A DNA stretch of 64,000 bases from a virus (IMGVR_UViG_3300035208_001913:30994-94993), one strand, 5' to 3'. Positions 9,594 through 64,000 are shown, counted from the first letter of the stretch. Translations and numbers: made by a program. Notes: a model not told the origin generated them from the letters alone.

Positions 9594-11066
9594 TTAGGAC
9601 TGTGCCGGTACATAATATACAGGGTTAGCATTTGTAGGAACAGGTTTGAAAATTCTTGAAACCTTATTTCTACAGATAACACCTGATTGGAAAAGTAAAT
9701 GTTTGTGACTACCATCAATTGAAGAAGCAATATCTCCACCTGCATCAATACCTTTAACGGTACCAGACTTAACACCTCTGAGTGTCATCATTTCAATACC
9801 ATTATTGCCATTATCATCAACACCCAAAGGTACGATGATTGCATCATGAGAAGAACGTCTTGTTCCATCAGGTAAGTCAATACTTGGACGTTGCATTGTA
9901 TCGAAGTAACGGTAACGGATAAATTTAAGCCTAACACCATCAATTTCATAGTATTCATAAGAGTTGTTTACGCCCTTACTTGCACCACTACCTTCAACGT
10001 TGTTATTCATAGTTGTGAAACCAGCTTCTCTTAATACTCTACTAAAGTTAGATATTGCTTGTTTTCCACCCATTACTACAGCTTCAATAAGTCCATCTTT
10101 ACCACGTCTTAAATCAATGTCTGACATGATACCTTCAATGAAGTTCATATTCCATACACTTACAGGATATTCAAAAGCACCTTCACCTTGGTACATGATA
10201 CCATCACCGGCCATTACTTCACGACCTTTAGTATCTTTCATTAAGATGTTACCATCTTCATCAACAGTACCTTGTCCAAATACCATAGCATATTCATGAT
10301 ATTCAGCTGCTCTTTTCATCATAAGATAATCAGCATGTGATAAGAATGATTTTTCACCATTATGAATAGTCCATTTCATTCCTTCTTTCATTGCTGCTGC
10401 TGTACCTGACCATGAGTGTTTGAAACGTTGTAATGTCATGTATGAACGACCCCATCCATCAAAAGTGTATTTCTCACCTGCTGTTTCAGAGAAATCGTGT
10501 TCGTACATTGTCATTACTGGAGTGCATTCCATTCCTTCTTGTAAAAGAATAGGATCACAATAGGTAGCTTTAATTTTGGTAACAACTTTTACTCTGTATT
10601 TAAACGAACCATTATATTCTTCTGGAACTTGGTCGTCTATAATATAAAGTAATGTTCTGTTATCAGCTAATTCTAAAGTTTCTTTTGGTATAGCCCAATT
10701 TGAATCTAAGTAAACATAGAATTCGGTCTGGTCTTTACCGGGAGTTGTTGGATAAGCATCGGAAGCATAACAAGCACCATTTGAAAAGACACCTACGAAA
10801 CGCATCTTTCTTTTATTGGTATTTGCTATAGGATACATTACCACATTTGATTTTGTAACTTTGTATTGTCCGTTTGCTAATCCTTCATAAAGTCCTTTAG
10901 CTTTCAAACCTTTTATTTCTAAAAAGTCTGTAAGTGGTGCTTCTTCGGGAAACAAACGATAAACGGTTGTAATCATATCGGGGTCAACTACTGCTGCCCT
11001 CATTAAGTTATAGCTACTAATACTTTCATTGGCTATATCTTTAGGTTGTCCTGGGAGTAATCTCAT
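9594..11066 (-). CDS. Major capsid protein
   Basis: 490 aa; follows an acidic scaffold-like gene; motifs GDGI and G-rich C-terminus with SSIDGS; size and synteny match crAss-like MCP. Confidence 0.8.
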   Translation of the reverse strand: MRLLPGQPKDIANESISSYNLMRAAVVDPDMITTVYRLFPEEAPLTDFLEIKGLKAKGLYEGLANGQYKVTKSNVVMYPIANTNKRKMRFVGVFSNGACYASDAYPTTPGKDQTEFYVYLDSNWAIPKETLELADNRTLLYIIDDQVPEEYNGSFKYRVKVVTKIKATYCDPILLQEGMECTPVMTMYEHDFSETAGEKYTFDGWGRSYMTLQRFKHSWSGTAAAMKEGMKWTIHNGEKSFLSHADYLMMKRAAEYHEYAMVFGQGTVDEDGNILMKDTKGREVMAGDGIMYQGEGAFEYPVSVWNMNFIEGIMSDIDLRRGKDGLIEAVVMGGKQAISNFSRVLREAGFTTMNNNVEGSGASKGVNNSYEYYEIDGVRLKFIRYRYFDTMQRPSIDLPDGTRRSSHDAIIVPLGVDDNGNNGIEMMTLRGVKSGTVKGIDAGGDIASSIDGSHKHLLFQSGVICRNKVSRIFKPVPTNANPVYYVPAQS

Positions 11067-30085: not shown

Positions 30086-30157
30086 AGATATATATTGTAA
30101 TGGAAGCATGACACTCTTTGAAGTGTTAGTATCTGGTTCGAGTCCAGATTATATCAC
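30086..30157 (+). tRNA. tRNA-like element, Gln(TTG)-type, irregular
   Basis: Acceptor gatata/tatatc; D loop aatgg; gacac-tctttgaa-gtgtt anticodon arm with 8-nt loop; T arm tctgg-ttcgagt-ccaga. Confidence 0.5.
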
Positions 30158-48561: not shown

Positions 48562-49283
48562 ACGAAGACACCTACCTATTAGGACTACTAATTGATAATG
48601 ACAGAGAAGTTGAGGAAGCAGAAAATAATAATGAATAAAAATTAAAAATTTAATAACATGAACAACATACAAATAGCAGCCAAACTTTACGATTGTAGAG
48701 ATACTGCAAAATCATTATTCAAAGAGGAATACAAAACAAAATTACAGCCTTATACTCATATTGTCAAAGAAGTAATGAAGGCTAATAAATTGGAAGTAAT
48801 ACCAGCGTTGTTGAAAATTAGTAAAACAGCAACTTATCAAGATAGCGGAATAGCACAAATGATGTTTATGGCTGCCGTTGAAGAACTAATTGAGCAACAT
48901 TAATATTTGCAATAACATGAAACTAAACCAATTCAAATACAAAACCGTTATAGATTTAGGCTTTATTGATGAAGTGAAAAGTGATACTAATTACTTCAAT
49001 GAGCATGGATACGAATATTCTATTATTACTAAAAAACTAACTAAACTCATTTATCTTGACTGGTGTAAAGAAACTAAAGAATGTGAGTTAATACGACTTG
49101 ACAACCTCAAAGAAATGAATATAGTAGCACGTTTACAAATCAGAGATATAAATCATCTGCACGAAGTAATTAATTTTTTTACTAATCAATTTCCGAATTA
49201 CGATTACTCAAAATTAGCATAATAAAAACAAATAACAATGTTTTGTGCCACATAACTTTTTTAAAACTAAAACCAAAGTAAAT

Positions 49284-49709
49284 ATGAAACCCACCCTCTA
49301 CATCATATCAATATTCCTCATCTTTGAATTTGGCAGAATATCAACTACCCTTGAAACATTGCCGATACAAAACACAGACACCCTGTTTTTCTCTACGGAG
49401 CTGAACGATGTCAACTTACTTAATGCTTTGGAGTGCTTCGAGGCGAAAGCAAGCCACATAGTCCTAAAACAAGCTAAATTTGAAAGTGGAAATTATACCT
49501 CACGTCTTGCAGTTGAGGATAAAAATATTTTCGGGCTTTTTAATTCTGCTTCGGGAAAATACTATATATTTGAACATTGGATTGAAAGCGTTTTGGCTTA
49601 CAAGAATTTAGTTCAGAGAAAATATAAGGGCGGTGATTATTATAAATTTCTTGAGGAGTTGCCCTATGCGAGTGATGGAAATTATTGCGGGAAGGTTAGG
49701 GGGATGTAA
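49284..49709 (+). CDS. Glucosaminidase/FlgJ-like (GH73-type) peptidoglycan hydrolase with N-terminal hydrophobic anchor
   Basis: QAKFESG...NIFGL...YASD.NY; ATG 49284 preferred as start; its TAA is the first TAAC core of array 1. Confidence 0.7.
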   Translation: MKPTLYIISIFLIFEFGRISTTLETLPIQNTDTLFFSTELNDVNLLNALECFEAKASHIVLKQAKFESGNYTSRLAVEDKNIFGLFNSASGKYYIFEHWIESVLAYKNLVQRKYKGGDYYKFLEELPYASDGNYCGKVRGM

Positions 49710-49843
49710 CGGTTGGTGGCTTGGCGAAGTACCGCCTTGCAGAATGTTCAAATATAGTACAAAGGCTTGTGGCGGTATTTTGCCAAACCACTGTTATAAG
49801 CCGTTTTTATTCGTGTTTGGCTTAACAATTTAATTTAAAAACA

Positions 49844-50149
49844 ATGTCAGTATCATTAAACGCAACAGCTTATTCAAGCAAAGAAAGCAAGGAATTTCAG
49901 AAACATTACAACGCTGTAAAATTCTGTATCGAAAACGAATTGTCGTTCCCAAAAGAAACCTCTGAATTTTTCAAAGGCAAACTTGGTGGCGATGATTTGG
50001 AAGACATTAAATCCGAAGCGATACTCGGTTATTTAGATAATGGGGTTTCAATTGAAATGCCTTTCAGATATTTCAGAGGTTCAGAAGTTCAAATCAATGT
50101 TTCTGAAATTCCGTCAGGTGTCGATTTAATTGTTGTGAAGCTGTCGTAA
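49844..50149 (+). CDS. Cassette M1 gene, hypothetical
   Basis: 101 aa, between gttataagccgtttt and aaaatggcttataac. Confidence 0.7.
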   Translation: MSVSLNATAYSSKESKEFQKHYNAVKFCIENELSFPKETSEFFKGKLGGDDLEDIKSEAILGYLDNGVSIEMPFRYFRGSEVQINVSEIPSGVDLIVVKLS

Positions 50150-50223
50150 AATGGCTTATAACGGATGTGTGTATGGCACGTTGCTTACACTTAACTTGAC
50201 TTGAAACACAAAACTTTAATAAT

Positions 50224-50400
50224 ATGGAAACAGATAATTTGAAACACGAAAAGCAATGTGCTATACACGATGTTATATACAGTCGTTATTTGGAAAAGAT
50301 TGAAAAAGAAAGGCGTGAAAAGCAGGTAATGTTAGACTTGTGGTATATGGCAACAAAAGGTAAGCAAGTTGTGTTGTGCGTTGGAAACGATTGTATATAA
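50224..50400 (+). CDS. Cassette M2 gene, 58 aa; not in the ORF track (copy at 56459-56635)
   Basis: METDNLKHEKQCAIHDVIYSRYLEKIEKERREKQVMLDLWYMATKGKQVVLCVGNDCI; starts in the hairpin loop and stops in TAAC. Confidence 0.6.
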   Translation: METDNLKHEKQCAIHDVIYSRYLEKIEKERREKQVMLDLWYMATKGKQVVLCVGNDCI

Positions 50401-51988
50401 CTACCCGCTAAATATAATAACATATTTTATATCTTTATTAAAAATAAAATCACTACTTTTTAAACCTATTATAAATAAATTACCCTTTTAAAATGAAAAT
50501 AATCTTTCAAATAGTCGTATCTAATGAAAAGGACACAATAATCGATAGTGTTAAAGTAATGATACCTATTAATGATATAGATAATAGCTTTACAAGGCTT
50601 AAATACCTATTAATTAAAAAATTCAATATCCCATCAAATTACACAATAGATTTTGGAGTTACAAATAATTATAAATTTGCAAAAATGAACTACATAGGAG
50701 CACGGCTAAGAAACGAAATAATATCAATAATCAAAGAAGTAAAAGAAAGCGGGCAAGATTACAGTCTTGACCTTATAGCAAGTAAGTTGCATAGTGAAGG
50801 TAGGATAAGCAAATGTCATTATAATAGGCTTAAAGAAGATGAGATGTTAAGAAAAAGAATTTTGAATAATGTAAATAAATAAATAAAATTATGAGATATT
50901 TAGTAAGTTTTTTAGAAAATAATATAAGAAAATCTTTTTATACGAACTGGTATGAAAGTTCTAACAACTTCGATATTGATTTAGATATGATTGTATTTGA
51001 TTTCTCAACTCATAAATTTAGTGTTGATGGTATTAACTGGATAGATATAGAAGAAGATCACTTGTAAATAAATAAAAATTATGAAAAAAGATAATCTATA
51101 TTTGCCGAGCAATGGGACTGAAGGTGATGGATTTATGTCTATATGGTGCGAAAACTGTAAAAAAGATACAATGCTTAGAGGCGGTGAAACACAATGTTCA
51201 ATACTTACTAATGCACTTGTTAAAGGATACGTAAAGCAATGGGTGTATATTGATAATGTACCTATTTGTACGTCATTTGTAAAAGTTGGTACTATACAAA
51301 AGCATAAGAAACGTATTGCTAAAAATCAAATAATAATAGGAGACTTATAAATTATGAAAACAACCTACTGTGGAGACACCACTATAAAATGCAGACATAG
51401 AGATAAAGACGTTTGCAAACAGACAAAAGATTGTAGTCTTAAAAAAGATTGTAGTCTTAAAATAAGTGAAAAAGAATTTGATGCAGAATGCGACCATTAC
51501 TTTCCTGCAACAAATAAAGGATACTTACCTTGTGAGTTTTGTGGTAAAATTAAACCTGAATAATTATGAAACTCCAAACAGGTAAAACGCTTACAGAGCT
51601 TGCAAGGCTCTATGAGATAGAGGCAAAATATAATGAATTATTAAAACAGTTAAAAAATGATTAGAATAGTAGGAAAAGTAATCGTTAAGACCATGCCAGC
51701 TTCATGTTCTGAATGTTCATTCATTCAAGAGGACTGGAAGTGTATATTAACCGGATACTTCTACACTTCTTATGTTGACAGAAATCCACTTTGTCCTCTT
51801 AAATCAAAAGATAATAAAAACAGGTGTTATTCGCCTAACTGCCAAAGAAATGCACCTGTAAATGATATATTTTGTAAAAAACATAGATAAATAATTAACC
51901 CTCTTAAAACCTTCTCACTTGTATAGGATAAGTGCACAGCGAAGCCGAAAACTGTATAGAGTAGGCAAAATTTTAAATAATTAAAAGT

Positions 51989-52960
51989 ATGGAAATAGAA
52001 AATGTATATTATCTGCAAAGTGGTAGAATATTTGTCGCTAAAACAGATGATAATAGATATATTGAATTTACCGAAATGAGAGACGTAAAGACTGATTCAA
52101 AAGAAAATGAAGAAGTTAGAAATACGCAGGACACACGAATAATTTGGAAGCATTTAGATAAGTTTACAAATAAATGGTTAATGACTGTTTCCACTCAAAT
52201 TGGGTGCACTCATAAATGTAAATTTTGCGATGTCTCATTATTAAAATTTGGCAGAAATTTAACAGAACATGAAATATGGTGGCAAATAGACCAAATTATA
52301 AAATGCACTCCTTACGTTACACAAACAAACAAAGCAAAGATAGGATTTGCCAGAATGGGTGAGCCTGCTCATAATTTTTTAAATGTTTCTGATATTATCT
52401 GCAATTTGAAAGGATATAAAGGGTTTAATTGGTTGCCTTGTTTTAATAGTATTTTACCGAATAAAACAATACAGGGGATAACTTCTACTGATATATTAAT
52501 GAGAATGATTAATATAAAGGAAAGTATTTATGATGGTTTTTTACATTTACAACTAAGTATAAATTCAACAGATGAACAGAAAAGAAAAGAGTTATTTGGG
52601 GGTGCTTCCGTTATGGAATTGGAAAATATTATAAACCTTGTTAATAAATCAAATATTTCAAATAGAAAAGTGACATTGAATTTTATCGTTATGAAAGGCG
52701 TTCCTGTTGATGTTTCTGTACTTAAAAAAATGAATATAAATTCAGATAAAATTATTGTCAAATTAATTCCTTTAAACCAAACTGATATTGCTCAAACATC
52801 AAATTTAGAAACATTTGCAAATTACTCAAATTACGAGGTATTACAGCAACTTAGAGACGATTTTAAAAAGGAAGGTATAGAAACTGTTGTAGATACTATT
52901 GCACGCTGTGAAGATGCCGGTTTATGTTGTGGACAAATAATACATACTCATTATGAATAA
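51989..52960 (+). CDS. RlmN/Cfr-like radical SAM protein (copy at 58224-59195)
   Basis: VSTQIGCTHKCKFC, RNL...EI..QI, MGEP, LIPLN, CGQ motifs. Confidence 0.8.
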   Translation: MEIENVYYLQSGRIFVAKTDDNRYIEFTEMRDVKTDSKENEEVRNTQDTRIIWKHLDKFTNKWLMTVSTQIGCTHKCKFCDVSLLKFGRNLTEHEIWWQIDQIIKCTPYVTQTNKAKIGFARMGEPAHNFLNVSDIICNLKGYKGFNWLPCFNSILPNKTIQGITSTDILMRMINIKESIYDGFLHLQLSINSTDEQKRKELFGGASVMELENIINLVNKSNISNRKVTLNFIVMKGVPVDVSVLKKMNINSDKIIVKLIPLNQTDIAQTSNLETFANYSNYEVLQQLRDDFKKEGIETVVDTIARCEDAGLCCGQIIHTHYE

Positions 52961-53609
52961 AAATATAAGTATAATTACAAATTTTGGATGTCGGGCAAAT
53001 TGTTGGTACTGTATATGGAAAGGACACCCCTACGAAAAAGTAAACCTTAAAACAGATTGGAATAAATTAGAAAACTTTTTATCAGAATATAAATGTAAGG
53101 GAAAAGTATCTGTTTCTGGCGGTGGTGATTGCCTTTATAGATATGATGAATTTGTAGGATGGTGGGTAAAATTATTACAAATTACTAATTCATTAAATAT
53201 AAAATTAGATATTCATACAAGAGAAAAATTTACAAAACAATCTTTTTGGAAAAATAATGTTAACCGTTGTGTATTTTCGAGTGATTTTTTTGATACTGAT
53301 AAAGAATGGTTTGAATATATAATAAATTTTACAAAACTTAGAATTACTCACGTTGTTACTGAATTTTCTACTATTGAAAATACACAAAAATATATTGATT
53401 TTTGCAAAGAAAATAATTGTCAATTTACATTAAAAGAATTAGTATCATTTAATGATAATGGCAATTATAAATTATTTAAAGAATTATTTAGTAATGAGTT
53501 TTTTCTCGATGGTGGTGATTATAATATTTACTATTTTCCTGACAATTCTATTCAAGAAAAATTTATTTCCTCAGCAACAACATCAAACAATAGCGGATAT
53601 AGATTATAA
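52953..53609 (+). CDS. Radical SAM protein (copy at 59188-59844)
   Basis: CxxxCxxC (GCRANCWYC), VSVSGGGD. Confidence 0.8.
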   Translation: MNKNISIITNFGCRANCWYCIWKGHPYEKVNLKTDWNKLENFLSEYKCKGKVSVSGGGDCLYRYDEFVGWWVKLLQITNSLNIKLDIHTREKFTKQSFWKNNVNRCVFSSDFFDTDKEWFEYIINFTKLRITHVVTEFSTIENTQKYIDFCKENNCQFTLKELVSFNDNGNYKLFKELFSNEFFLDGGDYNIYYFPDNSIQEKFISSATTSNNSGYRL

Positions 53610-54215
53610 CTTTCCAACAGCAAAACCAAAAATGAAGCTAACAATATTACCACCCCACCAGATTTTCTTTCTCTTAAGTTCACCAGCATACGCATTTTGA
53701 GCATTCTCATATCCCACCTGCCACCTGTCAGATTGCATCTGAATAACATTATTCTTTACCTGTAATGTATCTATTCTATTTCCCTGTATGTCTATAATAG
53801 AATCAGCTTTTGATAATTCTATACGAGTTAATTTCAATATGGTATCAGTTGCTATTGCCTGTTTTACTTGTTTTTCAGTAAAGCCAATAATAGTATCGTT
53901 TTCACGTGGCACTAATACAACAGAATCAAAAACAGCAATACAACTTTCTATGGTTTCCGCAAAAGTCAAACTATCTACATAAACAGTAACAGTCTTTATA
54001 GTTTCATGTACTTTGTTTTTAGATGTTTTAAGGCTGTCTATTGAATCTGATTGTAATTGTAGTACATTGTTTAATCTTGCAATAGTTATGCTGTCCTGTG
54101 AATTGTCAATAGTTGTGGTGGGCTTTTCAGTAAACTCATGCCAAGCGAATAAAGCAATTATAATTACTAAGGCTGTAATGATTATGTTTTTGAGGGTGTT
54201 ATTATTTATTGTCAT
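53604..54215 (-). CDS. Membrane-anchored coiled-coil protein, spanin-like candidate (copy at 59839-60450)
   Basis: N-terminal TM segment, coiled coil, C-terminal hydrophobic tail. Confidence 0.45.
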   Translation of the reverse strand: MTINNNTLKNIIITALVIIIALFAWHEFTEKPTTTIDNSQDSITIARLNNVLQLQSDSIDSLKTSKNKVHETIKTVTVYVDSLTFAETIESCIAVFDSVVLVPRENDTIIGFTEKQVKQAIATDTILKLTRIELSKADSIIDIQGNRIDTLQVKNNVIQMQSDRWQVGYENAQNAYAGELKRKKIWWGGNIVSFIFGFAVGKL

Positions 54216-54534
54216 TTTCTTCTTTTTTAGTATAAGTACCTGATGTTGTTATTATTGTATAGTCAATAGGTTTATAATCTGATGTTTGGCAACCGTACAT
54301 TACTACTGTTGGTTGGACGTTAGGAAATGGGTACGGTGGGTATGTTTTTTTAGGTAGTTTTTTTATCCAGTCCTCAATATTCTTTTCAGCTTCTTTGTCA
54401 GCTTTTGGCAAGTCATTTTCTGATACTTTTTCAAGTTCAGTAATAACATCATTGATTACTTCTTCTAAAGGTTTGTCCTTTGATACGGCTTTTAAATATC
54501 CTTTAATCCAAAAAATAAATTCTTTATATTTCAT
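54202..54534 (-). CDS. Hypothetical protein (copy at 60437-60769)
   Basis: 110 aa; TACATTTG promoter element at 54560-54567 on the minus strand. Confidence 0.6.
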   Translation of the reverse strand: MKYKEFIFWIKGYLKAVSKDKPLEEVINDVITELEKVSENDLPKADKEAEKNIEDWIKKLPKKTYPPYPFPNVQPTVVMYGCQTSDYKPIDYTIITTSGTYTKKEENDNK

Positions 54535-54599
54535 AATAAAATAATTTTAATATTTATTGCAAATGTAAGGAAAGTTTTTGTATTTTTGTAAAATAATAT

Positions 54600-54671
54600 A
54601 GCGAGGCGGTTGTTGGTTACCCGCAAGGCTCATAACCTTTGCTCTCGTGAGTTCGATTCTCACCCTCGCAA
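54600..54671 (+). tRNA. tRNA with CAT anticodon (Met/fMet or Ile2)
   Basis: gcgagg/cctcgc acceptor with 1:72 mismatch, aagg-ctcataa-cctt anticodon arm, gtgag-ttcgatt-ctcac T arm; no encoded CCA. Confidence 0.75.
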
Positions 54672-54673
54672 CT

Positions 54674-54703
54674 AAGCTCTTTATTGACGTAAGGAGCTTT
54701 TTT
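54674..54703 (+). terminator. Intrinsic terminator after the tRNA
   Basis: aagctc...gagctt hairpin followed by a T run. Confidence 0.6.
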
Positions 54704-54808
54704 ATTTGATTACAAACTCACTTTACCGTTGTTTTTTGCTTACTTTCCGCACCTATACTGCAATAGCTTATTTGATTGGAAAAATTAACAATTTTTTATT
54801 AAATTTAT

Positions 54809-54839
54809 TTTGATATATATAATATATATATTATCTTTG
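54809..54839 (+). promoter_or_regulatory. Bacteroidota promoter TTTG-N19-TATCTTTG heading cassette array 2 (copy at 61044-61074)
   Basis: Consensus elements ending 11 nt before the first TAAC (54850). Confidence 0.7.
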
Positions 54840-54907
54840 CTGAAATTATTAACTATTAGCGGTATATTGTTGGGATTTTTACGGATTAAAAACATAAATA
54901 TAATTAT

Positions 54908-55183
54908 ATGGACAAAAATGTATTAAAAGGCATAGCAGAAAGAAAACTTGAACACATGAGACACGGATGTTTTCGTGGCGGACTAAATCACTTCTTGGAC
55001 ACGGGTTCGATTAATGGCAGTTTTCTTGATGCCTTAAATGAATTAGCTGAAGAAATAGTAAAAACCTGCAATATACCGCCTGTTATAAAATCGGTTTGCG
55101 AGTTTTGTGGACACGAACATTTAATGCGTGGCAAAAATGGTGTGTGGTGTGAGGAATGCCTTAAAAAGCAAACTGTTTTATAA
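54908..55183 (+). CDS. Cassette M3 gene with C-terminal zinc ribbon (copy at 61143-61418)
   Basis: CEFC...CEEC; stop codon inside TAAC. Confidence 0.65.
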   Translation: MDKNVLKGIAERKLEHMRHGCFRGGLNHFLDTGSINGSFLDALNELAEEIVKTCNIPPVIKSVCEFCGHEHLMRGKNGVWCEECLKKQTVL

Positions 55184-55431
55184 CGGTGCGTGTATGAAAC
55201 GTGGTGGGATAGAAACCACCTAACTATCAAAATACAAATAACTTAATAGAATGGAACAAACTTTAAATAACGCAGAAACCCCACCATGTTTTATACACGG
55301 TGTGTGTGCCCCGTTTTTATTTAGAATTATTATAAATATACGATTAAATGTAAAATAATTGCTTTTTTATTTGGAAATTACAATTATTCGTTGTATATTT
55401 GTAGGGTAATAATAAATTAAAACTTTGAATT

Positions 55432-55794
55432 ATGAAAACGATAAAATGTTACAGATGCAACGGAACAGGAACAACACCACACAAACACATAGCCAATGGA
55501 GTATGCTTTGCTTGTGGAGGTTCTGGTATTCTTGAGTATAAAGATGATAGTTTTGAAAATAGTTTAATGTGGTTTTGCAAAGATGTTAGACCAACTATTA
55601 CAGATGGGTGCAGTTGCAAAATGATTAAAAATACAAGTTTTGAAGGACGTGGAGTTGATAAGGGTGGTGAGTTTATAGCAAAAAGAGTTGGTGAAAGCGT
55701 AATTTTTTGGAATAAAAAAGCAGGTGCAAACTGGCACTTTGATGTACCTATGACAGCAGTAGATTTAATGAAAAAACACTTTGTGAAAATATGA
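55432..55794 (+). CDS. Cassette M4 gene 1 with DnaJ-type CxxCxGxG zinc finger (copy at 61667-62029)
   Basis: CYRCNGTG...CFACGGSG; internal promoter at 55370-55401. Confidence 0.7.
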   Translation: MKTIKCYRCNGTGTTPHKHIANGVCFACGGSGILEYKDDSFENSLMWFCKDVRPTITDGCSCKMIKNTSFEGRGVDKGGEFIAKRVGESVIFWNKKAGANWHFDVPMTAVDLMKKHFVKI

Positions 55795-55988
55795 GAATAA
55801 TACTCGCAATATTTACAGATAGGTTTGAGGTTTACGGAAGCCTTAAACCTTTCTTTGAGCAATATCCGCAATATGCTGAACTCAAAGATAAAATTGATTA
55901 TACTATGTCTCGTAAAAAATTACCATTCGAGCATTCAGAATTTAAGTTACAACGGATGAACGTTCGGAGGTCTTTAAATGGGGTATAA
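55791..55988 (+). CDS. Cassette M4 gene 2, small putative DNA-binding protein (copy at 62026-62223)
   Basis: 65 aa, ATGA-coupled to gene 1; stop codon inside TAAC. Confidence 0.6.
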   Translation: MRIILAIFTDRFEVYGSLKPFFEQYPQYAELKDKIDYTMSRKKLPFEHSEFKLQRMNVRRSLNGV

Positions 55989-56017
55989 CGGTTCGCAAGT
56001 ATATTTAGTTGCGGATT

Positions 56018-56106
56018 TAGAAGCACAAAACTTTAAATTAAGATAAAATGAAAATAGAAGCACAAAACTTTAAATTAAGATAAAATGAAAATAGAAGCAC
56101 AAAACT
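56018..56106. repeat. 37-bp tandem repeat (about 2.4 copies) in the M5 hairpin loop
   Basis: tagaagcacaaaactttaaattaagataaaatgaaaa starting at 56018, 56055 and 56092 (partial). Confidence 0.85.
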
Positions 56107-56396
56107 CGGATAAACCACAGAACCCCCAATTGAGTAAGGGTGCTGTTATGTGCCGTACTTTTTCCAATATGTTCTTTTGGTTTGGAATACAACTATTTGA
56201 TAGCCGACTTAAAGAATATGGTGGGTTTAATCACTTTATCGCTGGTAAAATTTTCAGATGGAAATATTGCTATTTGTCAATTGCACTCCGTAAACAATGG
56301 CGATTTGAATGGATACACGAAAGCGATGATTATTACTATGACGGCTATCATAATAGCATTACAATTGGGTGTCTGCAAATCTCGTATGGCACATAA
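56085..56396 (+). CDS. Cassette M5 gene, hypothetical (copy at 62320-62631)
   Basis: 103 aa; starts in the loop and stops in TAAC. Confidence 0.65.
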   Translation: MKIEAQNSDKPQNPQLSKGAVMCRTFSNMFFWFGIQLFDSRLKEYGGFNHFIAGKIFRWKYCYLSIALRKQWRFEWIHESDDYYYDGYHNSITIGCLQISYGT

Positions 56397-59300
56397 CGGA
56401 TGTGTGTATGGCACGTTGCTTACACTTAACTTGACTTGAAACACAAAACTTTAATAATATGGAAACAGATAATTTGAAACACGAAAAGCAATGTGCTATA
56501 CACGATGTTATATACAGTCGTTATTTGGAAAAGATTGAAAAAGAAAGGCGTGAAAAGCAGGTAATGTTAGACTTGTGGTATATGGCAACAAAAGGTAAGC
56601 AAGTTGTGTTGTGCGTTGGAAACGATTGTATATAACTACCCGCTAAATATAATAACATATTTTATATCTTTATTAAAAATAAAATCACTACTTTTTAAAC
56701 CTATTATAAATAAATTACCCTTTTAAAATGAAAATAATCTTTCAAATAGTCGTATCTAATGAAAAGGACACAATAATCGATAGTGTTAAAGTAATGATAC
56801 CTATTAATGATATAGATAATAGCTTTACAAGGCTTAAATACCTATTAATTAAAAAATTCAATATCCCATCAAATTACACAATAGATTTTGGAGTTACAAA
56901 TAATTATAAATTTGCAAAAATGAACTACATAGGAGCACGGCTAAGAAACGAAATAATATCAATAATCAAAGAAGTAAAAGAAAGCGGGCAAGATTACAGT
57001 CTTGACCTTATAGCAAGTAAGTTGCATAGTGAAGGTAGGATAAGCAAATGTCATTATAATAGGCTTAAAGAAGATGAGATGTTAAGAAAAAGAATTTTGA
57101 ATAATGTAAATAAATAAATAAAATTATGAGATATTTAGTAAGTTTTTTAGAAAATAATATAAGAAAATCTTTTTATACGAACTGGTATGAAAGTTCTAAC
57201 AACTTCGATATTGATTTAGATATGATTGTATTTGATTTCTCAACTCATAAATTTAGTGTTGATGGTATTAACTGGATAGATATAGAAGAAGATCACTTGT
57301 AAATAAATAAAAATTATGAAAAAAGATAATCTATATTTGCCGAGCAATGGGACTGAAGGTGATGGATTTATGTCTATATGGTGCGAAAACTGTAAAAAAG
57401 ATACAATGCTTAGAGGCGGTGAAACACAATGTTCAATACTTACTAATGCACTTGTTAAAGGATACGTAAAGCAATGGGTGTATATTGATAATGTACCTAT
57501 TTGTACGTCATTTGTAAAAGTTGGTACTATACAAAAGCATAAGAAACGTATTGCTAAAAATCAAATAATAATAGGAGACTTATAAATTATGAAAACAACC
57601 TACTGTGGAGACACCACTATAAAATGCAGACATAGAGATAAAGACGTTTGCAAACAGACAAAAGATTGTAGTCTTAAAAAAGATTGTAGTCTTAAAATAA
57701 GTGAAAAAGAATTTGATGCAGAATGCGACCATTACTTTCCTGCAACAAATAAAGGATACTTACCTTGTGAGTTTTGTGGTAAAATTAAACCTGAATAATT
57801 ATGAAACTCCAAACAGGTAAAACGCTTACAGAGCTTGCAAGGCTCTATGAGATAGAGGCAAAATATAATGAATTATTAAAACAGTTAAAAAATGATTAGA
57901 ATAGTAGGAAAAGTAATCGTTAAGACCATGCCAGCTTCATGTTCTGAATGTTCATTCATTCAAGAGGACTGGAAGTGTATATTAACCGGATACTTCTACA
58001 CTTCTTATGTTGACAGAAATCCACTTTGTCCTCTTAAATCAAAAGATAATAAAAACAGGTGTTATTCGCCTAACTGCCAAAGAAATGCACCTGTAAATGA
58101 TATATTTTGTAAAAAACATAGATAAATAATTAACCCTCTTAAAACCTTCTCACTTGTATAGGATAAGTGCACAGCGAAGCCGAAAACTGTATAGAGTAGG
58201 CAAAATTTTAAATAATTAAAAGTATGGAAATAGAAAATGTATATTATCTGCAAAGTGGTAGAATATTTGTCGCTAAAACAGATGATAATAGATATATTGA
58301 ATTTACCGAAATGAGAGACGTAAAGACTGATTCAAAAGAAAATGAAGAAGTTAGAAATACGCAGGACACACGAATAATTTGGAAGCATTTAGATAAGTTT
58401 ACAAATAAATGGTTAATGACTGTTTCCACTCAAATTGGGTGCACTCATAAATGTAAATTTTGCGATGTCTCATTATTAAAATTTGGCAGAAATTTAACAG
58501 AACATGAAATATGGTGGCAAATAGACCAAATTATAAAATGCACTCCTTACGTTACACAAACAAACAAAGCAAAGATAGGATTTGCCAGAATGGGTGAGCC
58601 TGCTCATAATTTTTTAAATGTTTCTGATATTATCTGCAATTTGAAAGGATATAAAGGGTTTAATTGGTTGCCTTGTTTTAATAGTATTTTACCGAATAAA
58701 ACAATACAGGGGATAACTTCTACTGATATATTAATGAGAATGATTAATATAAAGGAAAGTATTTATGATGGTTTTTTACATTTACAACTAAGTATAAATT
58801 CAACAGATGAACAGAAAAGAAAAGAGTTATTTGGGGGTGCTTCCGTTATGGAATTGGAAAATATTATAAACCTTGTTAATAAATCAAATATTTCAAATAG
58901 AAAAGTGACATTGAATTTTATCGTTATGAAAGGCGTTCCTGTTGATGTTTCTGTACTTAAAAAAATGAATATAAATTCAGATAAAATTATTGTCAAATTA
59001 ATTCCTTTAAACCAAACTGATATTGCTCAAACATCAAATTTAGAAACATTTGCAAATTACTCAAATTACGAGGTATTACAGCAACTTAGAGACGATTTTA
59101 AAAAGGAAGGTATAGAAACTGTTGTAGATACTATTGCACGCTGTGAAGATGCCGGTTTATGTTGTGGACAAATAATACATACTCATTATGAATAAAAATA
59201 TAAGTATAATTACAAATTTTGGATGTCGGGCAAATTGTTGGTACTGTATATGGAAAGGACACCCCTACGAAAAAGTAAACCTTAAAACAGATTGGAATAA

Positions 59301-60834
59301 ATTAGAAAACTTTTTATCAGAATATAAATGTAAGGGAAAAGTATCTGTTTCTGGCGGTGGTGATTGCCTTTATAGATATGATGAATTTGTAGGATGGTGG
59401 GTAAAATTATTACAAATTACTAATTCATTAAATATAAAATTAGATATTCATACAAGAGAAAAATTTACAAAACAATCTTTTTGGAAAAATAATGTTAACC
59501 GTTGTGTATTTTCGAGTGATTTTTTTGATACTGATAAAGAATGGTTTGAATATATAATAAATTTTACAAAACTTAGAATTACTCACGTTGTTACTGAATT
59601 TTCTACTATTGAAAATACACAAAAATATATTGATTTTTGCAAAGAAAATAATTGTCAATTTACATTAAAAGAATTAGTATCATTTAATGATAATGGCAAT
59701 TATAAATTATTTAAAGAATTATTTAGTAATGAGTTTTTTCTCGATGGTGGTGATTATAATATTTACTATTTTCCTGACAATTCTATTCAAGAAAAATTTA
59801 TTTCCTCAGCAACAACATCAAACAATAGCGGATATAGATTATAACTTTCCAACAGCAAAACCAAAAATGAAGCTAACAATATTACCACCCCACCAGATTT
59901 TCTTTCTCTTAAGTTCACCAGCATACGCATTTTGAGCATTCTCATATCCCACCTGCCACCTGTCAGATTGCATCTGAATAACATTATTCTTTACCTGTAA
60001 TGTATCTATTCTATTTCCCTGTATGTCTATAATAGAATCAGCTTTTGATAATTCTATACGAGTTAATTTCAATATGGTATCAGTTGCTATTGCCTGTTTT
60101 ACTTGTTTTTCAGTAAAGCCAATAATAGTATCGTTTTCACGTGGCACTAATACAACAGAATCAAAAACAGCAATACAACTTTCTATGGTTTCCGCAAAAG
60201 TCAAACTATCTACATAAACAGTAACAGTCTTTATAGTTTCATGTACTTTGTTTTTAGATGTTTTAAGGCTGTCTATTGAATCTGATTGTAATTGTAGTAC
60301 ATTGTTTAATCTTGCAATAGTTATGCTGTCCTGTGAATTGTCAATAGTTGTGGTGGGCTTTTCAGTAAACTCATGCCAAGCGAATAAAGCAATTATAATT
60401 ACTAAGGCTGTAATGATTATGTTTTTGAGGGTGTTATTATTTATTGTCATTTTCTTCTTTTTTAGTATAAGTACCTGATGTTGTTATTATTGTATAGTCA
60501 ATAGGTTTATAATCTGATGTTTGGCAACCGTACATTACTACTGTTGGTTGGACGTTAGGAAATGGGTACGGTGGGTATGTTTTTTTAGGTAGTTTTTTTA
60601 TCCAGTCCTCAATATTCTTTTCAGCTTCTTTGTCAGCTTTTGGCAAGTCATTTTCTGATACTTTTTCAAGTTCAGTAATAACATCATTGATTACTTCTTC
60701 TAAAGGTTTGTCCTTTGATACGGCTTTTAAATATCCTTTAATCCAAAAAATAAATTCTTTATATTTCATAATAAAATAATTTTAATATTTATTGCAAATG
60801 TAAGGAAAGTTTTTGTATTTTTGTAAAATAATAT

Positions 60835-60906
60835 AGCGAGGCGGTTGTTGGTTACCCGCAAGGCTCATAACCTTTGCTCTCGTGAGTTCGATTCTCACCC
60901 TCGCAA
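60835..60906 (+). tRNA. tRNA(CAT), duplicate copy
   Basis: Identical to 54600-54671. Confidence 0.75.
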
Positions 60907-62698
60907 CTAAGCTCTTTATTGACGTAAGGAGCTTTTTTATTTGATTACAAACTCACTTTACCGTTGTTTTTTGCTTACTTTCCGCACCTATACTGCAATA
61001 GCTTATTTGATTGGAAAAATTAACAATTTTTTATTAAATTTATTTTGATATATATAATATATATATTATCTTTGCTGAAATTATTAACTATTAGCGGTAT
61101 ATTGTTGGGATTTTTACGGATTAAAAACATAAATATAATTATATGGACAAAAATGTATTAAAAGGCATAGCAGAAAGAAAACTTGAACACATGAGACACG
61201 GATGTTTTCGTGGCGGACTAAATCACTTCTTGGACACGGGTTCGATTAATGGCAGTTTTCTTGATGCCTTAAATGAATTAGCTGAAGAAATAGTAAAAAC
61301 CTGCAATATACCGCCTGTTATAAAATCGGTTTGCGAGTTTTGTGGACACGAACATTTAATGCGTGGCAAAAATGGTGTGTGGTGTGAGGAATGCCTTAAA
61401 AAGCAAACTGTTTTATAACGGTGCGTGTATGAAACGTGGTGGGATAGAAACCACCTAACTATCAAAATACAAATAACTTAATAGAATGGAACAAACTTTA
61501 AATAACGCAGAAACCCCACCATGTTTTATACACGGTGTGTGTGCCCCGTTTTTATTTAGAATTATTATAAATATACGATTAAATGTAAAATAATTGCTTT
61601 TTTATTTGGAAATTACAATTATTCGTTGTATATTTGTAGGGTAATAATAAATTAAAACTTTGAATTATGAAAACGATAAAATGTTACAGATGCAACGGAA
61701 CAGGAACAACACCACACAAACACATAGCCAATGGAGTATGCTTTGCTTGTGGAGGTTCTGGTATTCTTGAGTATAAAGATGATAGTTTTGAAAATAGTTT
61801 AATGTGGTTTTGCAAAGATGTTAGACCAACTATTACAGATGGGTGCAGTTGCAAAATGATTAAAAATACAAGTTTTGAAGGACGTGGAGTTGATAAGGGT
61901 GGTGAGTTTATAGCAAAAAGAGTTGGTGAAAGCGTAATTTTTTGGAATAAAAAAGCAGGTGCAAACTGGCACTTTGATGTACCTATGACAGCAGTAGATT
62001 TAATGAAAAAACACTTTGTGAAAATATGAGAATAATACTCGCAATATTTACAGATAGGTTTGAGGTTTACGGAAGCCTTAAACCTTTCTTTGAGCAATAT
62101 CCGCAATATGCTGAACTCAAAGATAAAATTGATTATACTATGTCTCGTAAAAAATTACCATTCGAGCATTCAGAATTTAAGTTACAACGGATGAACGTTC
62201 GGAGGTCTTTAAATGGGGTATAACGGTTCGCAAGTATATTTAGTTGCGGATTTAGAAGCACAAAACTTTAAATTAAGATAAAATGAAAATAGAAGCACAA
62301 AACTTTAAATTAAGATAAAATGAAAATAGAAGCACAAAACTCGGATAAACCACAGAACCCCCAATTGAGTAAGGGTGCTGTTATGTGCCGTACTTTTTCC
62401 AATATGTTCTTTTGGTTTGGAATACAACTATTTGATAGCCGACTTAAAGAATATGGTGGGTTTAATCACTTTATCGCTGGTAAAATTTTCAGATGGAAAT
62501 ATTGCTATTTGTCAATTGCACTCCGTAAACAATGGCGATTTGAATGGATACACGAAAGCGATGATTATTACTATGACGGCTATCATAATAGCATTACAAT
62601 TGGGTGTCTGCAAATCTCGTATGGCACATAACGTTTTGGCGGTTGGCGTTCGTTGCCGACTTTGAAACACGAAACTTTCACTTTAAAAAAAAATTGAT

Positions 62699-62986
62699 AT
62701 GGAAAACAAAACTTCAACAATCCACGAAAACGGCAATGACGCTAACCGCTTGTTACCTGCCGTTTTACTTGATATGAACGAAAGGTATTATTTTAAAACA
62801 CGAGGACAAGAACCTAATGTAGAATGCACTCAAAGATGTATGTTTAGAGATAACGGAATTTGTATAGGTTCAGCAGCTTGTCAAGAATGCGAACACCATT
62901 TTGAAAATAACATTGATGAATGGGGGTGCATTAGTTGGATTAAGTGTCGTAAGATTAACGAGGCTGTGTCCAAAAATGGCAGGTAA
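62699..62986 (+). CDS. Cassette M6 gene, Cys-rich
   Basis: 95 aa; starts in the loop, reads through GTTA (RLLPAV) and stops in TAAC. Confidence 0.7.
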   Translation: MENKTSTIHENGNDANRLLPAVLLDMNERYYFKTRGQEPNVECTQRCMFRDNGICIGSAACQECEHHFENNIDEWGCISWIKCRKINEAVSKNGR

Positions 62987-63104
62987 CGGATGGCGGTATG
63001 GTTTAGGCAACCAACCACTACTGCTAACTATGAAATACAAAATTATAATTGGTTGCTTAACTATACCGCTTGTTACCAACTGGGCGGTATTAAAACCAAA
63101 ATAA

Positions 63105-63533
63105 ATGATAACAGGAAATTATGAATTTGATTTGCAAATTGCTCAAACCCAAACAAGAGGAGCAAATAGTGAATATAGAAGATTGGCAAAAAAATTATCA
63201 ATTGACAAACCTTATAAAGATTTGTATCCATCAAGTGTACTACCAGATTTGGGTGCTTCATTTATTATTTATGCAAATGGAGCAACTTGGGTATTAGAAT
63301 GCTGGGTAAATTGGCGTTTATATTGGATTTCAAGCACTACAGATATACAAAATTTAAGAAGTGAAAACGCTGAATATAATTGTACTTGGTTACCCGACTA
63401 TTGGCATATAAGAAATATACGCAGAATAATATGGAAGCATCCAAATATGACTAATTGGACAAGTATTTTTTTGCCAACCAGAATAATTGAATTGTTATGG
63501 AAACTTGGTTTTAGATTTACATCGTGTCGTTAG
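63105..63533 (+). CDS. Cassette M7 gene, hypothetical
   Basis: 142 aa, between gttaccaac and gttggtaac. Confidence 0.65.
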   Translation: MITGNYEFDLQIAQTQTRGANSEYRRLAKKLSIDKPYKDLYPSSVLPDLGASFIIYANGATWVLECWVNWRLYWISSTTDIQNLRSENAEYNCTWLPDYWHIRNIRRIIWKHPNMTNWTSIFLPTRIIELLWKLGFRFTSCR

Positions 63534-63652
63534 CCTTGTTGGTAACGGTCGGCAATATGAAACGGTTGCCTTGTAGTTCGTTTCACAATATAGATGCAGT
63601 TTTCTGGCAACTGTTTTATATTGCTTGTTATAGCCAGTTAATTTTAAAAACT

Positions 63653-63868
63653 ATGTTAGTTAAAGACTTGAAAAAATTTTTGAATAAATTACCAGATGAC
63701 TTTGAAATAAAAATCATTACTGATAAACGAATACCAGACGATGTATTAAAAACAATGAGCTACCCTTACCCAATAGAGTCAAATAACTATGATTTTGATT
63801 TCGGTGATATAGGTTGGAGTTCAAAAATTACATCATTGAGAATAAAGTTGGACGAGCCACTTGATTAA
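63653..63868 (+). CDS. Cassette M8 gene, hypothetical (MLVKDLKKFLNKLPDD...)
   Basis: Likely ATG at 63653 after an A-rich initiation region; lies between gttatagccagttaat and attaattggctataac. Confidence 0.65.
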   Translation: MLVKDLKKFLNKLPDDFEIKIITDKRIPDDVLKTMSYPYPIESNNYDFDFGDIGWSSKITSLRIKLDEPLD

Positions 63869-64000
63869 TTGGCTATAACTATTTGCTAAATACAACAATT
63901 ATATATATAAAATAGTATAACTATATGATACCAAAAGAATTACAATACACTGAAAAAAAACTTTTAATGTTAACAAAACGACAAAAATCATCATTAGAAA

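Follow-up and report, generated by a model that had tools for sequence, protein, structure and literature searches.

The final 64 kb of a 94,993-bp virus record with a low GC content of ~28% (IMGVR_UViG_3300035208_001913, positions 30994-94993; hereafter, this whole stretch of 64,000 nucleotides is called the window) harbor, on the plus strand between 49707 and 63879, a succession of small genes alternating with stem-loop modules of a single design. The region quite likely represents an array of mobile gene cassettes, part of an integron-like system shared by Bacteroidota and the phages infecting them. Both the hairpins and the outer stems closing each cassette are hallmarked by G.T wobble pairs, and the comparison of related sites, made at the sequence level, supports the notion that these wobbles mark the strand which would fold into the working recombination site. 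An earlier note on this DNA had drawn attention to a conserved G.T pair about seven nucleotides from the core and to folding biased towards the plus strand.

Each module reads, in the 5′ to 3′ direction, TAAC-G, a bulge of 3-4 nt, a stem of ~20 bp, a loop of 35-90 nt, the return stem and (T)T-GTTA. The modules, TAAC and GTTA included, measure 88-127 nt, or 135 and 163 nt in the case of two degenerate ones. In the family alignment, TAACG and TTGTTA are invariant. The window contains 10 such hairpins, copies counted, and z-values from -2.7 to -4.3 were obtained for the folds of five modules. A further level of pairing embraces the genes themselves: the arm following each GTTA is complementary to the sequence preceding the next TAAC, with a whole gene in between. 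On the plus strand, the cassette unit is composed of (TAA)C, the hairpin, GTTA, the 5′ arm, the open reading frame (ORF), the 3′ arm and TAA.

It is in these outer stems that the seventh base after GTTA is G and faces T. The six arms for which this was claimed in the earlier note are all present, and six distinct cassettes display the stem form GTTA-N6-G...T-N6'-TAAC with one G.T each (Table 1). The outer stem, consisting of 4 core bp, 6 bp, the G.T pair and 3-4 Watson-Crick pairs, is 14-15 bp long, i.e., longer than initially stated. The two deviating arms described in the same note, designated M3 and M4, were found as described: M3 possesses the same wobble shifted by a single bulged T, and M4 features CCCC-G opposite T-GGGG, with a degenerate core. 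A strict search for six Watson-Crick pairs followed by G.T in the complete 95-kb genome returned seven pairs on the plus strand, all residing within the array, and one pair on the minus strand, vs. a mean of 0.155 pairs (maximum 2) in the block-shuffle control. One statement needs to be narrowed: the geometry was said to be conserved despite unrelated sequence, which is true of positions 1-5 and 9-11 only, since the neighbors of the wobble follow a consensus of their own (A-G-T-W facing W-A-T-T).

The same module was revealed in many phage contigs, where it forms arrays of up to ten copies, by a pattern scan of viral contigs, the many chance matches obtained at first being removed by folding. 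With a tighter pattern, it was detected in 47 stretches of contigs from metagenome-assembled genomes (MAGs), mostly of Bacteroidota. For a census of arm pairs, cassettes of other phages and Bacteroidota chromosomes were selected by perfect pairing at positions 1-5 only, yielding 91 unique cassettes, each with its own arm pair. At position 7, 68 of them have G.T and a further 18 have this pair behind a 1-nt bulge, the rest being T.T (three) or a Watson-Crick pair (two). The enrichment of G.T by position, proposed earlier as a check on homologous sites, is therefore evident: 86/91 arm pairs possess the wobble, with its position and type retained. The 3′-arm base at position -7 is T without exception (91/91), and the opposite arrangement, T.G, occurs at position 7 in none of the 91 pairs. 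Positions 1-5 make use of all base combinations, always paired; positions 8-11 form Watson-Crick pairs in 61-78 of the 91, and the pairing is gone past position 11. In the inner stem, compensatory changes were recorded at 13 of the 21 pairs. Additional G.T pairs are located on either side of the bulge (46/46 and 45/46 rows, their positions being preset by the search pattern in the seed rows), and more of them, repeated across several unrelated arm types, at stem positions 9 and 14. Cassettes of the chromosomal arrays conform to the same arm pattern of 6 bp, G.T and 4 bp.

The wobbles are also strongly one-sided. The assertion that most deviations in the hairpin arms are G.T on the plus strand was borne out by a strand-neutral count on the hairpins between cassettes, in which the left arm was compared with the reverse complement of the right arm: the transition mismatches forming wobbles on this strand vs. 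those forming wobbles on its complement numbered 108:8 in the viral sites, 128:11 in the MAG sites and 37:3 in the chromosomal arrays. All seven modules of the window are predicted to be more stable as plus-strand DNA, by 0.2-5.0 kcal/mol. When both strands were folded in the larger set, the wobble strand turned out to be the more stable one in 58/60 viral, 66/72 MAG and 15/15 chromosomal sites, with a mean predicted gain of 2.7, 2.4 and 4.9 kcal/mol, respectively. Overall, mismatch position and type in the larger set are far from random, and the two strands do not fold equally well.

The junctions along which related DNAs diverge fall on the core TAAC. A block of 6235 bp (50159-56393) is tandemly repeated with near-perfect identity, so the repeat spans 50159-62628; its three junctions have only ATAACG in common, and all of them lie on aTAAC|g. 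The block comprises several cassettes together with a 4.8-kb stretch carrying two radical-SAM genes. Either unequal site-specific recombination or an assembly path leading twice through a circular or variant form may account for this duplication. At its very end (63874-64000), the contig repeats genome positions 122-248 over 127 bases, the two sequences diverging exactly at TATAAC, with the final TAAC at 63876, and the first 121 bases of the record resemble the end of another cassette; the repeat at the contig end suggests a circular or permuted genome in a population varying in the last cassette. Elsewhere, two phage contigs with 99-100% identity around the sites (L056 and L077) differ by two single-cassette indels, bounded by TAACGG and TAACGT, and one 366-bp cassette bounded by TAAC...TAAC is common to phage contig L006 and contig L035, where its flanks are unrelated. 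Homology blocks start at most 2 nt from TAAC in 10 of 13 cases. These natural indel junctions delimit the cassette unit as (TAA)C...TAA and place the crossover at the 5′ end of the wobble strand, with a resolution of 6 nt.

Besides, the core TAA serves as the stop codon of the upstream ORF at 6 of the 9 distinct junctions (49707, 50398, 55181, 55986, 56394 and 62984), so recombination at TAA|C would always keep the stop of the gene.

In relatives, the hairpin arrays are linked to recombinase genes, being situated directly 3′ of Xer-like genes in three Bacteroidota contigs (G006, G007 and G008:C8). A Paludibacteraceae chromosome harbors seven hairpins of the family in a row, ending ~1 kb from the 3′ end of a gene coding for a tyrosine recombinase of 444 aa (L178:14174-15508, minus strand); a Bacteroidales chromosome and a Crocinitomicaceae contig display the same layout. 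The array-adjacent enzyme reaches the NF040815 cut-off (221 vs. 220 bits) and scores 204.6 bits with the integron-integrase model TIGR02249, for which the cut-off is 265. Positions 181-237 of the latter model, which we take to be the site of the I2 insertion, are unmatched, ~20 residues being present instead. The nearest solved relatives of the enzyme are XerA and XerC-like proteins, and an integron platform in the classical sense, i.e., IntI with the I2 domain beside the array, is not what these relatives possess. A homologue of 268 aa (43% identity, E 2e-67; L122:1159-1965, plus strand) is encoded in phage contig G001, with one family hairpin at a distance of ~1 kb and the main array following after 8 kb. 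No hairpin of the family lies within 10 kb of four other Xer/IntI-like genes in G008-G010; hence, not every such enzyme has an array nearby. The earlier note had envisaged a protein recognizing the folded plus strand, in analogy to strand selection on the attC bottom strand. As far as can be judged from the sequences, this idea gains support from the arrays beside Xer-like genes and from the junctions at TAAC at the 5′ end of the wobble strand, which together carry the link to integrons beyond an analogy.

The cassette nearest to the recombinase gene (9817..10977, minus strand) in the Crocinitomicaceae contig (L186:9032-9775) is of the phage type: it matches phage contig L067 at both ends, with identities of 89% (first 262 bp) and 91% (last 86 bp), and no long open frame is present in its middle part. 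This similarity hints at an exchange of cassettes between phages and bacterial arrays.

The relation of the wobble strand to the genes differs between bacteria and phages. In the bacterial arrays, the ORF lies opposite the wobble strand in 18/20 cassettes, which corresponds to the classical integron layout (a top-strand gene followed by its attC). In phages, the studied window included, the layout is reversed, the ORF being located on the wobble strand after its hairpin in 43/46 cassettes. This flip of polarity implies that the wobble strand tracks recombination, not transcription, and constitutes the main argument against a role at the level of RNA. The latter had been named in the earlier note as the alternative: the plus strand would be the mRNA strand, and its G.U-containing stems would act in processing, stability, termination or translation control, with mobility being secondary. 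The sense orientation of the wobble strand in phages agrees with this possibility, as do the normality of G.U in RNA and the loops with a conserved promoter-like or leader-like motif, sometimes with a start codon. Still, a structured RNA would be expected on the transcribed strand everywhere, whereas the bacterial arrays possess the same wobbles and the same stability bias antisense to most of their ORFs. Furthermore, an RNA role does not predict junctions falling on TAAC within 6 nt; the only Rfam matches at E<=1 (sub-threshold DUF805b, tmRNA-like and AfaR) lie away from the hairpins; and the stems are not followed by a T-run, for which reason intrinsic terminators were rejected as well. Overall, an RNA-level function as the primary explanation appears highly improbable.

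The asymmetry could also originate in duplex DNA, if the enzyme acted on double-stranded sites and distinguished their left and right ends by AGT (the 5′ arm) vs. AAT (the complement of the 3′ arm), the fold bias being a by-product. The conserved neighbors of the wobble (A-G-T-W / W-A-T-T) do look like a protein-binding motif, and the associated enzymes are Xer-like and devoid of the IntI I2 region. This explanation is nevertheless quite unlikely: it gives no account of the arm positions 1-5 and 9-11 covarying across a whole gene, of the ~20 bp of compensated inner pairing around loops of 35-90 nt or of the wobble mismatches being one-sided (at least 10:1). It is extremely improbable that the wobbles are a functionless by-product of mutation, namely of C-to-T deamination in an exposed strand turning G-C into G.T. 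Deamination would indeed yield a one-sided excess of G.T among the transition mismatches, as observed, but decay would scatter it, whereas the wobbles occupy fixed positions across no fewer than six arm types and 91 cassettes, all unrelated, with T as the partner in each of these cassettes; the bias is also of the same sign in phage and bacterial arrays despite their opposite transcription. Several other candidates were rejected outright: IS200/IS605-like transposition, since no Y1 HUH transposase was found (PF01797, none at E<=1) and there are many arm types with cassette-specific ends; homologous shuffling akin to that of the promoter-early stem-loop (PeSL) cassettes, since the junctions have only 6 nt in common; and a dyad-symmetric two-arm reading of the wobble positions, since the distances to the core differ between the sides.

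For the integron-like cassette array, the following mechanism can be envisaged. When the plus strand becomes single-stranded or is extruded as a cruciform, each hairpin would fold, and once a cassette is excised as a circle, its two arms would add ~11 bp to the outer end of the hairpin. The folded strand would then be bound by a tyrosine recombinase of the Xer/IntI kind and exchanged in TAA|C at its 5′ end, and the product, by what is known of integrons, would be resolved by replication. Nearly every imperfection of the stem is a G.T pair with a fixed place: one lies 7 bp beyond the core and two flank the 3-nt bulge, and positions 9 and 14 of the inner stem are frequent sites as well. Here, G.T would keep the helix of the plus strand continuous, and the complement would carry C.A mismatches; since G.T on one strand equals C.A on the other, folding of one strand is favored. 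Beside the core, C.A on the wrong strand would convert the 3-nt bulge into an open internal loop. According to this model, the wobbles probably provide the enzyme with position marks as well. The outer wobble is 10-11 bp away from the crossover, and a recombinase-binding arm of dif measures 11 bp; hence, the outer wobble, at approximately the reach of one such arm, may indicate where the bound arm ends. A more far-reaching proposal is advanced only tentatively. The fixed set of G.T pairs (one 7 bp outside the core and two flanking the bulge) could replace the extrahelical bases of attC as a code for strand choice and registration, read by an Xer-like recombinase that never acquired the I2 helix of IntI. 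It would then represent a second independent solution for the handling of folded single strands, which phages would use, with reversed polarity and a promoter in the loop, to trade small accessory genes.

A number of points weigh against the interpretation of the region as an integron-like array acted on by such an enzyme. In the studied phage, there is no PF00589 match at E<=1 to suggest a tyrosine recombinase and no remnant of a phage-type enzyme. Without a recombinase of its own, activity in this phage would need a factor in trans, so the host or a co-infecting phage would presumably have to provide the enzyme. The I2 region, by which IntI reads the extrahelical bases, is absent from the recombinases next to the arrays. 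A single metagenome assembly underlies both the duplication and the junction at the contig end. The hairpins were detected partly by a fold-energy threshold applied to the TAACG-oriented strand, with seeds taken from sequence patterns; therefore, the energy bias and the two bulge-flanking wobbles could be inflated. Finally, no binding or recombination experiment on this hairpin family was found in the literature.

Among the replication-side genes of the phage, Pfam and PHROG scans revealed a GIY-YIG endonuclease, a DUF1064 / Holliday-junction-resolvase-like protein and a helicase, and no recombinase. Searching with all 142 ORFs (tblastn) uncovered no enzyme shared by the studied phage and the array-bearing loci, and no relatives were found via the DnaB-like helicase. 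Likewise, neither the array nor one hairpin with its cassette gave a blastn match to cultured-phage records. Among sequencing runs, this DNA was listed for DNA samples only, all of them groundwater and landfill metagenomes, and for no RNA sample.

The features of the region are collected in Table 1.

Table 1. Hairpins, cassette arms and associated reading frames of the array (window coordinates; fold, predicted DNA folding energy in kcal/mol for the plus and minus strands; G and T, the two bases of the position-7 wobble)
Feature	Coordinates	Strand	Remarks
attC-type hairpin A	49707..49796	+	TAAC-G, 3-nt bulge, stem, loop, stem, T-GTTA; fold -18.7 (+) vs. -16.3 (-), z -3.1; core TAA is the stop codon of ORF 49245..49709
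Cassette 1, 5′ arm GTTATAAGCCGTTTT	49793..49807	+	TAAGCCG; G 49803; 15 bp with 50148-50162
Cassette 1, 3′ arm AAAATGGCTTATAAC	50148..50162	+	T 50152; TAAC at 50159 is junction J1 of the 6235-bp duplication
attC-type hairpin B	50159..50275	+	Copy 56394-56510; fold -13.6 (+) vs. -9.4 (-); loop contains the start of ORF 50224..50400
Cassette 2, arms GTTATATACAGTCGT / ACGATTGTATATAAC	50272..50401	+	TATACAG; G 50282, T 50391; copy 56507-56636 (G 56517, T 56626)
M3	55082..55184	+	Arms 55082-55100 / 55165-55184, ~17 bp; G.T displaced by one bulged T
Degenerate hairpin C	55181		Opened by the TAAC at this position
M4, 5′ arm	55302..55313	+	Degenerate core (GTGTGTG-CCCC-G); pairs with 55979-55989 (T-GGGG-TATAAC)
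M4, copy	61537-61548 / 62214-62224
Cassette D	55986..56397	+	TAAC, short hairpin, 37-bp tandem repeats, arm, ORF ..56396, arm; copy 62221-62632
Cassette D, 5′ arm	56145-56159		TGTGCCG; G 56155 (copy 62390)
Cassette D, 3′ arm	56383-56397		T 56387 (copy 62622); TAAC 56394 is junction J2
attC-type hairpin E	62629..62755	+	Fold -23.3 (+) vs. -19.1 (-), z -2.9; TAAC 62629 is junction J3; arms 93-100% identical to a hairpin of phage contig L006
Cassette, arms GTTACCTGCCGTTTT / AAAATGGCAGGTAAC	62752..62987	+	CCTGCCG; G 62762, T 62977
ORF of cassette 62752..62987	62699/62775..62986	+	Ends with the TAA of the core
attC-type hairpin F	62984..63075	+	Fold -19.1 (+) vs. -15.7 (-), z -4.3; row of the family alignment
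Cassette, arms GTTACCAACTGGGCG / AGCCTTGTTGGTAAC	63072..63546	+	CCAACTG; T.T at position 6; G.T at position 7 (63082/63536); ORF 63105..63533
attC-type hairpin G	63543..63630	+	Fold -17.3 (+) vs. -12.3 (-), z -4.2; arm type recurrent in many phage contigs
Cassette, arms GTTATAGCCAGTTAA / TTAATTGGCTATAAC	63627..63879	+	TAGCCAG; G 63637, T 63869; ORF 63653..63868; arm pair also in L010 and L067

The loops of the hairpins have in common a motif approximating TTGYA...AACTTT(C)AAATTA (columns 46-90 of the family alignment; e.g., 50190-50222, 62660-62700 and 63575-63600), and the long loops also hold a start codon. The motif may represent a promoter or a leader inside the hairpin, which would explain the expression of the reversed cassettes in phages. 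The hairpin/leader of cassette D contains 2.4 tandem copies of a 37-bp unit, TAGAAGCACAAAACTTTAAATTAAGATAAAATGAAAA (56018-56106; copy 62253-62341), by which the loop motif and an ATG are duplicated. The TAAC sites which close the runs of cassettes (50398-50420, 56633-56655 and 63876-63898) are not followed by a hairpin and display a common motif, TAAC-TA(CCC/TTT)GCTAAATA, which may be a primary insertion site.

Several RNA-like elements were recorded apart from the modules. A tRNA-like 3′ half (GGTTCGATTCTCACC...) at 54609-54674 (copy 60844-60909) obtained a weak tmRNA score in Rfam (15 bits) and no call from ARAGORN. The DUF805b RNA match at 51936-51967 (copy 58171-58202), with 26.8 bits vs. 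a gathering score of 35.6, is situated just upstream of an RlmN/Cfr-like radical-SAM gene (51989..52960). The tRNA called by ARAGORN at 30087-30157 possesses an abnormal two-base anticodon loop, 'tt'.

Recombination on folded single-stranded DNA has its textbook case in integrons, where the choice of strand is attributed to extrahelical bases that a dedicated integrase domain reads. The family described here displays the same one-strand polarity with fixed wobbles and an associated enzyme lacking the I2 domain. The system could reveal the minimal needs of hairpin recombination and the way IntI evolved from Xer. Phage genomes and bacterial arrays contain identical types of hairpin and have one or more cassette families in common, which suggests a possible route for Bacteroidota phages to exchange small accessory genes. 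For genome annotation, the polarity of the wobbles offers a simple rule for orienting arrays and locating cassette boundaries.

Among the known systems, a Xer-type recombinase working on a folded single strand of phage DNA is encountered in CTX phi, where XerCD integrates the single-stranded attP(+), the folded strand mimicking a duplex core; after the exchange of one strand, the product is resolved by replication. Unlike the exchangeable cassettes considered here, it is a single integration of a whole filamentous phage at dif, and we know of no fixed wobble code in it. Elements of the IS200/IS605 family (e.g., IS608) likewise act on one strand, via imperfect subterminal hairpins, and insert 3′ of a tetranucleotide; in contrast to the cassettes, they require a Y1 HUH transposase, their hairpins are short and constant within a family, and their ends have no cassette-specific stem. 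In the PeSL cassettes of T4-type phages, small accessory genes are located between repeated promoter-plus-stem-loop modules in plastic regions. The shuffling of the latter is ascribed to homologous recombination, whereas the junctions here are of 6 nt and each cassette possesses its own covarying end stem.

Clusters of attC sites lacking an integrase (CALINs, defined by at least two attC in a row with no integron integrase nearby) are a closer parallel, and the 10 hairpins of the window, with no integrase, fit this definition structurally. With classical attC models, 17 small CALINs were found in 10,705 phage genomes, and some phage attC were recombined by IntI1, the bottom strands better than the top ones (Qi et al. 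2023, PMC9892861). Like the array considered here, these are attC-type sites in integrase-less virulent phages, including a phage of Bacteroidota, Polaribacter P12002L; the survey gives no account of this hairpin family, of its fixed wobbles and extended cassette-closing stems or of arrays with all genes on the folding strand. Neither these two papers (PMC5027507 and PMC9892861) nor further literature searches yielded a description of wobbles at fixed positions, of a long outer stem specific to the cassette, of a core in which a bulge plus wobbles stand in for extrahelical bases, of the Xer-like enzyme or of the reversed polarity in phages.

Strand-biased folding through G.T is already known for classical attC sites: their bottom strands are 2.12 kcal/mol more stable and contain 1.24 vs. 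0.39 G:T mispairs, an excess discussed by the authors as a help to strand selectivity (Nivina et al. 2016, PMC5027507). The modules share with these sites the imperfect palindrome (~57-141 nt in classical attC) with AAC...GTT core feet, the crossover at the 5′ AAC of one strand and a cassette start complementary to the start of its own attC. In both cases, the folding strand is the more stable and the richer in G:T, the gain here being 2.4-4.9 kcal/mol and the mismatch ratio at least 10:1. The differences reside in how this asymmetry is arranged. In the present family, the wobbles are set at fixed positions, and the R-type stem is cassette-specific and extends ~11 bp past the core. According to the predicted folds, a single bulge of 3-4 nt after TAAC-G with two G.T pairs interrupts an otherwise continuous stem, where attC sites feature an unpaired central spacer and L-box extrahelical bases, and the associated recombinase is Xer-like, without the I2 region.

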